From a virus (Duplodnaviria; Heunggongvirae; Uroviricota; Caudoviricetes): a DNA stretch of 64,000 bases. The stretch is taken from positions 1-64,000 of the IMG/VR virus record IMGVR_UViG_2913167280_000003. The stretch is one strand, 5' to 3'. This document shows positions 33,685 through 35,699 of the stretch, piece by piece; the stretch's first letter is position 1, and each line of letters starts with the position of its first letter. Below the pieces are notes generated by a model, which had not been told where the DNA came from, made no database searches, and worked only from the letters and a program-made list of their open reading frames with translations. The translations under genes and the position numbers were made by a program.

Positions 33685-34251
33685 TCACTTCAACATGGAT
33701 GAGAAAAGAACAATTCCCGGGATAATTGCCCTTGTTGCGCTCATTTTCTCTTCCAGATCCAGCTTTCGCTGATACAGCGTGTTCTCGTCGGATAAATTGC
33801 TGGCATCGAGTTTCCCCGCGATAGATATTCTTCGCAGGCGATCAGTGTTAGGTATAGCGATTAGCACTTCCAGATAGTCAGAAAGTAACCCAATGATTTC
33901 AGGTGGCACTTCCCCATTATCCAGATCCATATCACGTAAATTAGCCAGATATGACACATTCAGCGGGTATACCGCTCGATGAGTATCTTCAAGCTCGATA
34001 TTCCCATCGTAAACATCGGAGTAGACAAGATCGCCGGTGTGATCTGTAACCGATACGAGCGCAAGAAAATCAGCTGGGCAAGCAAGTGATTTAAAGGTCT
34101 GATCAGTGAAGCGTATCCGCTTGATGTGCCCAGCCCTATCCTGGTAGGTTCCCAATGCTTTTCTTAGCAGGGATTCCAGTAAGGCAGGTTCATCCGCAAT
34201 CAAAGGTGTGAAGCGGGATTTGACGTCTTCGAGTAATTGTCGTGGTGTCAT
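33685..34251 (-). CDS. Virion morphogenesis protein (PmgC-like position), first gene of the sit/baseplate operon
   Basis: 188-aa ORF; its first 12 codons and upstream promoter region are duplicated 1.4 kb away. Confidence 0.4.
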
Positions 34252-34304
34252 TGAAACCTCGTAGAATCTGGTTTGTTAACCGATTCTACGAGTTGTCATT
34301 TGTC
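34215..34304. repeat. Direct repeat copy 1 (~90 bp) covering the pmgC-like 5' end and promoter region
   Basis: 85/89 identical to 35610-35698; contains an 8-bp inverted repeat GTAGAATC...GATTCTAC. Confidence 0.85.
34283..34303 (-). promoter_or_regulatory. Late-promoter-like motif upstream of the pmgC-like gene
   Basis: Minus strand reads ACAAATGACAA, CTCG, TAGAAT, a one-base variant of the ACAAGTGAC motif seen at other late operons. Confidence 0.4.
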
Positions 34305-34445
34305 CATTGAGTGGGAATATTGCCGTCTGGGAGTAATATGGTATCATTAAGTTAGAGTAGGTAGTGTAGATGGAATGAGGAGTATCATATGGTTATCACA
34401 CAATCAGGTTGCTTTGAGTCAGGTTGTTTTGAGTAAAACAATAAA

Positions 34446-34470
34446 ACGCCCTTTAATGGGCGTATTTTTT
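34446..34470 (+). terminator. Terminator-like hairpin between the pmgC-like promoter and the membrane-protein gene
   Basis: ACGCCC-TTTAAT-GGGCGT followed by ATTTTTT; A-rich on the 5' side, so possibly bidirectional. Confidence 0.45.
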
Positions 34471-34480
34471 AGGATTTAAA

Positions 34481-35374
34481 ATGCATTCTTTACAGAAATA
34501 CATAAAACATAAATATACTCACTTAACTTTTTTTCTCTCATTACTTTTTTTCATGATATTTGAATCGCGAGAAGATCTTATCAAGAAAATATTATCTTTT
34601 TCTCTCAATGAAGTTTTACCATTCTTAATGTTTGCGTTCTTCTCCGTATTTATCAGCATAACGATAAAGGAAAAGATAGCAAAGAAATACCCAGAAACAA
34701 ACGATGGGATTACCATTATAGCTTTAATCTTTGGTGTAACACTATATAGTGTGTTTATCTTATATTATTTATATGGTGATGTATACCAATCCACAATTGC
34801 TTTACTTATAAGTTCTGTGCTACTTGGTTCTGGGTGGTGGGTTCAGGCTACTGTGAGTAAAGTAGCCGCAAGAAAATCACACACCTTAAATACACTAATG
34901 AATCAAAGAAACAGTGAATTATTTCACAAGAAAGTTTCATCGGTAGCGAATACGTTCGGGCTTAGAAAAACCATAAATGAAATTATTGCCAAACAAAGAC
35001 TTGTCCCAAATGATAAAGATTTAAAAAATAAAAAGGTCCATGATGAATACATATCAGCAGGTAATGATATGTTCTTCGTTCTTAATTATTATGAATTTAT
35101 CTGTTCAGGAATAATAAATGGGGACTTTGATGAAGATTCAATGAGAGAATGTCTTGGACAAATTGTTCCAGGTCTCGAAGTTAGAGCATTTCATTTTATA
35201 AGAATTGCAAGAGAAATTTCAGGGAGTAGCTGCTTCTGTAATTTTGTCGCTGTTTCAGACAAATGGTCTACTAATGGAGGCTCTCTTATTCTCAGACACG
35301 AGAAAGGAGAACCTGTGATTAATAACCTGACCCATTGCTTTGAAGAAACAGACTGTTTTAACATAACTTCTTAA
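34481..35374 (+). CDS. Predicted 4-TM membrane protein with ~170-aa cytoplasmic C-terminal domain (accessory gene)
   Basis: 297-aa ORF, very AT-rich, AGGA RBS 6 nt upstream. Hydrophobic helices LTFFLSLLFFMIF, VLPFLMFAFFSVFISITI, GITIIALIFGVTLYSVFILYYLYG, TIALLISSVLLGSGWWV. Bracketed by ~90-bp direct repeats. Confidence 0.6.
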   Translation: MHSLQKYIKHKYTHLTFFLSLLFFMIFESREDLIKKILSFSLNEVLPFLMFAFFSVFISITIKEKIAKKYPETNDGITIIALIFGVTLYSVFILYYLYGDVYQSTIALLISSVLLGSGWWVQATVSKVAARKSHTLNTLMNQRNSELFHKKVSSVANTFGLRKTINEIIAKQRLVPNDKDLKNKKVHDEYISAGNDMFFVLNYYEFICSGIINGDFDEDSMRECLGQIVPGLEVRAFHFIRIAREISGSSCFCNFVAVSDKWSTNGGSLILRHEKGEPVINNLTHCFEETDCFNITS

Positions 35375-35380
35375 TATTTT

Positions 35381-35407
35381 GTAACCCATAATCGCTTTAT
35401 GGGTTAC
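35381..35407 (+). terminator. Hairpin downstream of the membrane-protein gene
   Basis: GTAACCCAT-(9 nt)-ATGGGTTAC perfect 9-bp stem, 7 nt after the stop codon. Confidence 0.4.
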
Positions 35408-35609
35408 GTTAAATTTGCAATAAAAAAATCAATCGCCGGGCTTTAAGCATCCATCGTTTTTGGCTTGTTGATATAACTTACTTAGCCCAGAAAGAGGGAA
35501 TGTGGCAATTTTTTCATTATCAACATAAGCATCAATCACATTAGCATTTGAATCTGCTGCATCCTGCCAAAAGGCATACCACCAAGAATCTCCAACCATT
35601 GACCCAAGA

Positions 35610-35699
35610 GGGATTTGACGTCTTCGAGTAATTGTCGTTGTGTCATTGACACCTCGTAGAATCTGGTGTGTTAACCGATTCTACGAGTTATCATTTGTT
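35610..35699. repeat. Direct repeat copy 2 (~90 bp), duplicate of the pmgC-like 5' end and promoter
   Basis: 85/89 identical to 34215-34303; retains the ATG and first 12 codons ([12 protein letters not shown]) and the ACAAATGATAA-N4-TAGAAT motif. Confidence 0.85.

Follow-up and report, generated by a model that had tools for sequence, protein, structure and literature searches.

How does a membrane-protein gene in a phage-plasmid come to lie between two copies of the promoter and first codons of a tail operon? This question is raised by the sim locus in IMG/VR virus record IMGVR_UViG_2913167280_000003, of which we analyzed positions 1 to 64,000 (a stretch of 64,000 nucleotides, below called the window). 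The window is a P1-like phage-plasmid, and in it a gene with a DUF4760 domain is bracketed by direct repeats that each carry the late promoter LPsit and the start of pmgC, the first gene of the late operon pmgC-tub-pmgB-sit. An earlier note on this DNA had described the bracketed segment as a gene cassette acquired, or still excisable, by recombination within a promoter region. Its general reading, a recombination product at a promoter that left a pseudo-start behind, agrees with our results, but the anatomy of the segment and the order of events turned out to be different. With high probability, two alternative sim-locus cassettes were joined head to tail by an illegitimate join, and the scar was later spread by homologous recombination.

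The duplicated LPsit promoter

A repeat search of the window returned a single long family, the direct repeat at 34211-34303 and 35606-35698, the two copies of which have 93 nt and are identical at 88 of them (95%). For the slightly shorter span reported earlier (34215-34303 and 35610-35698, with 85 of 89 positions identical), our recount gave the same four mismatches. Such a pair of repeats cannot be the result of chance. The 89-nt span of each copy consists of 37 nt of pmgC coding sequence (12 codons and one nucleotide) and 52 bp of upstream sequence. As the earlier note had stated, the pmgC ATG, the first codons and about 50 bp of upstream sequence are included in both copies; the start codon appears as CAT at 34249-34251 and at 35644-35646, on the minus strand in each case. 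In addition, each copy holds the Shine-Dalgarno sequence GAGG.

The motif in the repeats that had been likened to a late promoter is the annotated LPsit of phages P1 and P7, to which the repeats align without gaps. The records of both phages place LPsit 32-50 bp before the pmgC start codon and mark in it a -10 signal and a '-22 region'. When this annotation is carried over, repeat copy 1 (34211-34303, minus strand) contains the working LPsit late promoter together with pmgC codons 1-13. Its promoter core (34283-34301, minus strand), aligned to the five other annotated P7 late promoters, is made up of the -22 box AAATGACAA (34293-34301), 4 nt, and the -10 hexamer TAGAAT (34283-34288). Repeat copy 2 (35606-35698, minus strand) contains a second LPsit, with the -22 box AAATGATAA (35688-35696) and the -10 hexamer TAGAAT (35678-35683), followed by the pmgC pseudo-start.

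We compared the late promoters LPmat, LPpro, LPlyz, LPdar, LPs and LPsit of P7 and P1, which share the class pattern AA[G/A]T[G/T]A[C/T]T[T/A]-N4-TANNNT. Both window copies fit this pattern and show the P1-type arrangement of a 9-bp -22 box resembling AAGTGACTT, 4 nt and a TANNNT -10 signal, in the forms AAATGACAA-ctcg-TAGAAT and AAATGATAA-ctcg-TAGAAT. At position 8 of the -22 box both copies have A, not T. Copy 2 also has T at position 7, and this sole private change in its box (C to T) is found in the natural promoter LPlyz as well. Altogether, copy 2 carries three private substitutions, at repeat positions 34, 45 and 85.

The two copies resemble the Lpa-dependent late promoter class represented by LPsit of P1 and P7 in their alignment and in their -22 box, spacing and TANNNT hexamer, but they differ in what lies downstream. 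Copy 1 stands directly upstream of pmgC and heads the operon, whereas copy 2 heads just a 12-codon fragment of pmgC. Unlike the LPsit of P1 and P7, it drives no structural gene; its product would be a 36-codon pseudo-open reading frame (ORF) in which the 12 pmgC codons are followed by 24 out-of-frame codons up to a stop, and the description of copy 2 as a truncated pseudo-start was thus correct. When the window was scanned with the pattern for additional late promoters, the four hits obtained, against 1.4 expected, were not significant.

The DNA between the repeats

The interval between the repeats had been described as AT-rich DNA with hairpins at both ends and a single gene preceded by a ribosome-binding site. 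The low GC content (0.34 between the repeats and 0.354 in the following cassette, vs 0.476 in pmgB-pmgC), the one intact gene and the hairpins at 34446-34463 and 35380-35408 were all confirmed, but this gene is not the sole content, since a P1 spacer and the 3' fragment of a second gene are also there. The first 160 bp (34304-34463) are the P1-type pmgC-simC intergenic spacer, which ends in a bidirectional terminator hairpin (34446-34463). Its homology to P1 and phage 673R5 extends as far as the terminator stem and breaks off immediately past it. There follows the intact gene for a 297-aa DUF4760 membrane protein (34481-35374, plus strand), which has a GC content of 0.326. A hairpin with a 12-bp stem (35380-35408) is predicted between the DUF4760 gene and the convergent remnant of g158, a gene for a 158-aa signal-peptide protein (PHROG 3429). 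The remnant (35429-35609, minus strand) is the 3' third of g158, and its 56-aa ORF (35429-35599) shares 96% identity with the last 56 residues of the full-length g158 protein in plasmid CP023961.

The interval is not a discrete cassette with its ends at the repeats. Acquisition of the gene by recombination within the promoter region, as had been proposed, is contradicted at both ends: P1-type DNA runs 160 bp past copy 1 to the sim terminator, and at the right end stands the 3' third of g158, which about 26 plasmids with the same DUF4760 gene and one LPsit possess in full. The presence of the DUF4760 gene and an intact g158 beside a single LPsit in these plasmids indicates that the duplication is later than the arrival of the gene.

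In the pmgC-simC spacer we also observed a 15-bp tandem duplication (34403-34432, TCAGGTTGCTTTGAG / TCAGGTTGTTTTGAG). P1 has one such unit, and two are present in the window, in 673R5 and in the DUF4760-type plasmids. The duplication creates a 15-codon ORF with a good Shine-Dalgarno sequence, and this ORF is interrupted in P1. We considered that the 15-codon ORF (34389-34436), the terminator and the subsequent DUF4760 start might form a leader peptide with an attenuator; this reading was rejected because of the interruption in P1 and because the spacer is older than the DUF4760 gene at this site.

The junction and its distribution among relatives

A three-way alignment located the illegitimate junction of g158 and pmgC at 35606-35610. 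The sequence is derived from g158 up to 35609 and from pmgC starting at 35610, and the trinucleotide AAG (35606-35608) is common to both parents. Repeat position 4 is the g158-derived A in every copy 2 sequence, which fits a single origin of the junction.

The PLSDB collection contains 509 records with the LPsit/pmgC segment and 30 with the DUF4760 region. About 26 of these 30 records have a single LPsit and the layout pmgC-LPsit-spacer-DUF4760-g158(intact)-g116-icd, as in CP023961. Other relatives have, after pmgC-LPsit, the SH3-domain gene directly, P7-type genes (in P7) or simCBA (in P1). The junction was found in 4 of 497 matching PLSDB records, hence in 4 of the 509 P1-like plasmids of that collection, and in three complete Escherichia coli genomes (as a single aligned piece), which together correspond to five distinct plasmids: CP100532, JBXRYE010000003, CP069679, CP098993 and OY757122. 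The distal cassette is a pair of genes for 158-aa and 215-aa proteins in CP100532 and JBXRYE010000003, and consists of P7-type DUF5384 and lipoprotein genes in CP069679, CP098993 and OY757122; in the window it starts with the SH3 gene. The junction arrangement is rare and genuine, and it is not tied to one backbone. The junction 27-mer had no matches in IMG/VR and JGI metagenome contigs. A second LPsit hit in the E. albertii plasmid CP099870 was considered as another stacking event and rejected, as it is not adjacent to the first.

Spread of the repeat-bounded block

We compared the block with its flanks, pairwise, in four junction-bearing plasmids. The block between the repeats (1302 bp) shows 0-1 pairwise differences, vs 24-35 in the left flank pmgB-tub-pmgC (1357 bp) and 26-138 in the right flank c4-icd-ant (~1290 bp); for the contrast between the block and the left flank, the Fisher p-value is ~1e-7. 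The first differing site among the four plasmids to the left of the block is 34147, at a distance of 64 bp from copy 1. To the right, the plasmids already differ within copy 2: CP069679 carries the P7 allele there, and CP098993 carries other alleles. The four plasmids share a block that is identical by descent and bounded by the two repeats. The identity of the block between diverged flanks indicates its spread by homologous recombination through the repeats, and in this respect the earlier reading of a segment moved by recombination was well founded.

The block of the window represents a third haplotype, with 33 differing sites relative to these four plasmids and 36-38 relative to the single-LPsit type. 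Thus, the junction is older than the recent sweep and has been kept through ~2.5% divergence. For a repeat of 93 bp, excision is plausible. Recombination between the repeats would remove the block, leaving a normal locus of the SH3 type, and its products would look the same as plasmids that never had the block.

An independent event in plasmid CP074905

A comparable join arose independently in CP074905 (NZ_CP074905.1, 655-5062). There, the series pmgB-tub-pmgC-LPsit-spacer-DUF4760-g158', with 385 nt of g158 kept, is joined to the interior of pmgB. After the join come a second tub, pmgC and LPsit and then the SH3 cassette, so that the plasmid has a direct repeat of 1450 bp. With 29 differing sites, the two copies of this repeat are as far apart as unrelated P1-like backbones, which points to two different genomes as partners in the recombination. 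The copies could not be assigned to particular parental lineages, the backbone being too mosaic. The g158/pmgB junction of CP074905 is present in one of 5426 E. coli genomes.

Origin of the arrangement

Homology-facilitated illegitimate recombination and unequal crossing-over are a general mechanism by which such scars form. In the window, two cassettes stand in tandem, a proximal one of the 'DUF4760 type' (P1-type spacer and terminator, DUF4760, g158 and g116) and a distal one of the 'SH3 type'. In the explanation that we favor, one illegitimate crossover at the 3-nt microhomology AAG connected the middle of g158 with codon 13 of pmgC in a second P1-like genome or a sister copy; we infer an inter-genomic origin of this first join. 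The join truncated g158 and brought along 37 nt of pmgC and the 52-bp LPsit, giving rise to the 93-nt direct repeat. Copy 1 still serves the tail operon as promoter and start, and copy 2 is a relic with an intact -10 hexamer and a -22 box within natural variation. With conserved sequence on both sides, the block could recombine into or out of any P1-like genome, whatever its distal cassette, which would explain the same junction beside three different distal cassettes. Like other scars of homology-facilitated illegitimate recombination, this one has extended homology at one end; at the other, a microhomology join (AAG) has cut a gene short and duplicated a flank. It differs from them in that the duplication has since served as a homology arm, spreading the block to other backbones.

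Several observations weigh against this explanation. The first event is indistinguishable from an intragenomic tandem duplication with replacement of the distal copy, and the two repeat copies of CP100532 and JBXRYE010000003 agree at all 89 pmgC-derived nucleotides, differing at the junction base alone (repeat position 4). The module in the window is ~2.5% diverged from the other junction modules, and its route into the present backbone is either vertical descent or transfer from an unsampled donor. Furthermore, six genomes carry the junction, so the inference of breakpoints rests on few sequences.

Identity of the two copies bar the junction base in CP100532 and JBXRYE010000003 is what would be expected if the segment from pmgC codon 13 to mid-g158 had been duplicated in tandem within a DUF4760-type genome, the distal copy being replaced later by exchange between LPsit copy 2 and immI; cassette replacement at the sim locus is evidently frequent. 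We nonetheless regard this course of events as unlikely. The DUF4760 hits contain one gene each, and no genome with two DUF4760 copies was seen among them; the window copies differ at 4 of 89 sites, and the 29 differences in CP074905 point to two parental genomes. The AT-rich, foreign DNA between direct repeats might also recall a mobile element (a transposon, an insertion sequence or a site-specific cassette) that carried the membrane-protein gene into the promoter, with the repeats as target duplication or att sites. However, the segment that they enclose has neither a transposase or integrase gene nor terminal inverted repeats, and a 93-bp duplication is far above the length of transposon target duplications. 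Moreover, resident DNA lies inside the repeats, namely the P1-homologous 160 bp next to copy 1 (34304-34463) and the truncated gene abutting copy 2 (35429-35609). Neither is an integron-like or att-type cassette indicated, as the same gene occurs in the same place with one repeat copy and no duplication in ~26 plasmids, and no recombinase is present in the locus. A mobile element is therefore extremely improbable. Still less credible is an assembly artefact, either a mis-join or a collapsed repeat, for which nothing speaks beyond the general risk with repeats: the junction is the same base for base in five complete plasmids that were assembled independently and come from different countries and hosts, and the copies differ at 4-5 positions, which argues against duplicated reads.

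A different question is whether copy 2 has been selected as a second late promoter, providing either late antisense transcription across DUF4760 that shuts off a harmful membrane protein or extra transcription of the tail operon. The -10 hexamer TAGAAT and the AC-AAATGA core are kept, the change in the -22 box also occurs in LPlyz, no minus-strand T-run terminator is predicted from copy 2 to 34463, and the arrangement has persisted through ~2.5% divergence. On the other hand, three private substitutions in 93 nt are about what neutral change at this locus would give and exceed those of copy 1, most DUF4760 carriers have one LPsit, and the strong bidirectional terminator at 34446-34463 parts copy 2 from the operon. 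Selection of this kind is, in our opinion, quite improbable. If copy 2 is active late, its transcript would cross pmgC' and g158' and then, as no T-run terminator is predicted before that point, run antisense over DUF4760 to the terminator (34463-34446). It is also doubtful that LPsit-pmgC' is at once a portable homology arm that makes an either/or locus additive (the DUF4760 module being gained and the resident cassette kept) and, as copy 2, an active late promoter that silences DUF4760 in the lytic programme.

The inverted repeat in LPsit

An 8-bp inverted repeat had been noticed in the promoter. It is present, but it is longer than reported, with 11 bp of perfect complementarity between 34258-34268 and 34282-34292. 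The whole element occupies 34258-34292 in copy 1 and 35653-35687 in copy 2 (minus strand); its 5' arm holds the -10 hexamer and its 3' arm the pmgC Shine-Dalgarno sequence GAGG. The RNA hairpin predicted from it has a free energy of -23.6 kcal/mol (z = -5.45). A transcript that starts at LPsit is without the 5' arm, and thus the hairpin cannot form in such RNA. In read-through RNA from the accessory cassette the hairpin would fold and mask the pmgC ribosome-binding site, which may insulate the tail operon from lysogenic read-through. The inverted repeat is kept in P1 and P7, with too little variation for a covariation test.

Over the pseudo-start ATG of copy 2, the substitution at repeat position 45 makes a perfect palindrome, GTGTC-AAT-GACAC (35635-35660, minus strand). 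Its predicted energy is -7.0 kcal/mol in copy 2 vs -3.2 in copy 1. The palindrome could be due to chance or to silencing of the relic start.

The sim locus and its distal cassette

The DNA of the late tail operon pmgC-tub-pmgB-sit is 97% identical to that of P1, P7 and ~20 other Punavirus records. All four genes are on the minus strand. The first, pmgC (33685-34251; called tubA in P7), was identified by its 188-aa ORF, its 97% DNA identity to pmgC of P1 and P7 and its synteny with tub (33063-33674), pmgB (32167-33048) and sit (28693-32085). On the opposite side of the locus, homology to P1 restarts at 37520, in the c4 operator region. The immI boundary of the variable locus is marked by the c4 a1b1 target and the C4 antisense RNA (37675-37881, plus strand; Rfam RF03163 and RF01695, above the gathering score). 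An Rfam match to isrK (37688-37769, plus strand) overlaps the c4 a1b1 region with 45.6 bits, less than the gathering score of 50, and probably reflects the known kinship of C4-type antisense loci.

The sim region is one of eight highly variable, low-GC regions in P1-like phage-plasmids ('variable region 4'; PMC9603915). The locus in the window corresponds to it in its position between the late tail operon (pmgC side) and the immI region c4-icd-ant, in its low GC content and in contents that vary among close relatives. It shares with the P1 sim locus (simABC; upf50.0/upf50.5 in P7) the site between pmgC/LPsit and the c4 operator as well as gene sets that differ by relative. In contrast to that locus, the window holds two alternative gene sets together, parted by a second boundary copy (LPsit and pmgC'). 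We found no description of two sim gene sets stacked with such a second boundary in the literature searched. There are two replicon types among P1-like plasmids, IncY and p0111 (PMC9603915), and this difference might let two P1-like plasmids share one cell.

The first gene of the distal sim-locus cassette (35800-36984, minus strand) encodes a 394-aa protein of PHROG 7086 with a C-terminal SH3_3 domain (Pfam E = 1.2e-05), the match of 25.8 bits being just below the curated cut-off of 27. In relatives, this SH3 gene directly adjoins the single LPsit. Next to it lies a chimeric ORF of 154 aa (36971-37435, minus strand), an in-frame fusion of 28 codons from the InsQ/TnpB 5' end with a gene for a g168-type periplasmic protein that is without its signal peptide. 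These first 28 codons and 85 bp upstream are the left end and the tnpB 5' end of an IS200/IS605-family InsQ/TnpB element (36971-37520), and thousands of copies in E. coli chromosomes match the part derived from InsQ/TnpB. At the same backbone junction, plasmid CP183090 carries tnpB in full (402 aa), which indicates that the window holds a deletion scar of the InsQ/TnpB element. The sim locus of the window had no match of at least 99% in the phage, plasmid and E. coli collections; the best match for the distal cassette was 89.6%.

The DUF4760 protein

The product of the intact gene between the repeats belongs to Pfam family PF15956 and to PHROG 21275, for which the function is unknown. The PF15956 match covers residues 120-262 (52.3 bits vs a cut-off of 25, E = 8.7e-14), and the domain is present in every full-length homologue. 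The family is small, with 23 proteins in a search of 5.8 billion sequences, and has the strongly conserved motifs GSGWWVQATVSKVAARKSHTxNTLMNQRNSELF and LNYYEFIxxG. Relative to the nearest alleles, there are 18 synonymous and 6 non-synonymous codon differences, and the gene is under purifying selection. The AlphaFold (AF2) model (predicted local distance difference test, pLDDT, of 81) is all-alpha, with N-terminal hydrophobic helices. Two membrane helices are clear by hydropathy; the model suggests two more, and the basic residues flanking the helices suggest that the C-terminal domain is cytoplasmic.

The gene is frameshifted in CP069679 by an extra T in a T-run near codon 24 (~2990-3015 in that plasmid; 34535-34551 in the window), and is annotated there with a later start (273 aa). 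This T-run could be a slippage-prone on/off site.

A P4-like satellite carries a gene for one homologue of the DUF4760 protein at its end, where it follows the primase gene and adjoins integrase fragments; this position is not the published psu-int hotspot. Another was found in a Pseudomonas prophage, between the lysis genes and the integrase. PADLOC gave no match to a known anti-phage defence system, whether among its models of described or of candidate proteins. From the location of these genes in the sim locus, a satellite and a prophage, our best guess is that the DUF4760 protein may be expressed in the lysogen and have a role in superinfection exclusion or in abortive infection or another form of defence. 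The locus resembles the antiviral and accessory hotspots of temperate phages and satellites such as P2 and P4, in which a fixed site with conserved flanks has unrelated accessory genes swapped by recombination, frequently genes for membrane proteins and domains of unknown function (Rousset et al. 2022, PMC9122126). The P2 and P4 hotspots adjoin cos, whereas a late promoter and an immunity operator form the boundaries of the locus in the window, and a defence role of its genes is only predicted.

Implications for P1-like phage-plasmids

The sim locus was already known as variable, and the mechanism is an ordinary one. The current view of P1 or of phage hotspots is unchanged. The interest of the finding is modest, and lies in a boundary that acts as a portable homology arm with sequence evidence of recent spread, in the recurrence of the event, and in the uncharacterised DUF4760 protein, which is a cheap candidate for a phage-exclusion test. 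The locus provides a base-level example of how accessory genes build up at a phage hotspot: an illegitimate join duplicates the boundary, and homologous recombination moves the block, which is identical over 1.3 kb vs a ~2% flank difference between backbones. A DUF4760 gene of unknown function can thereby pass between related phage-plasmids.

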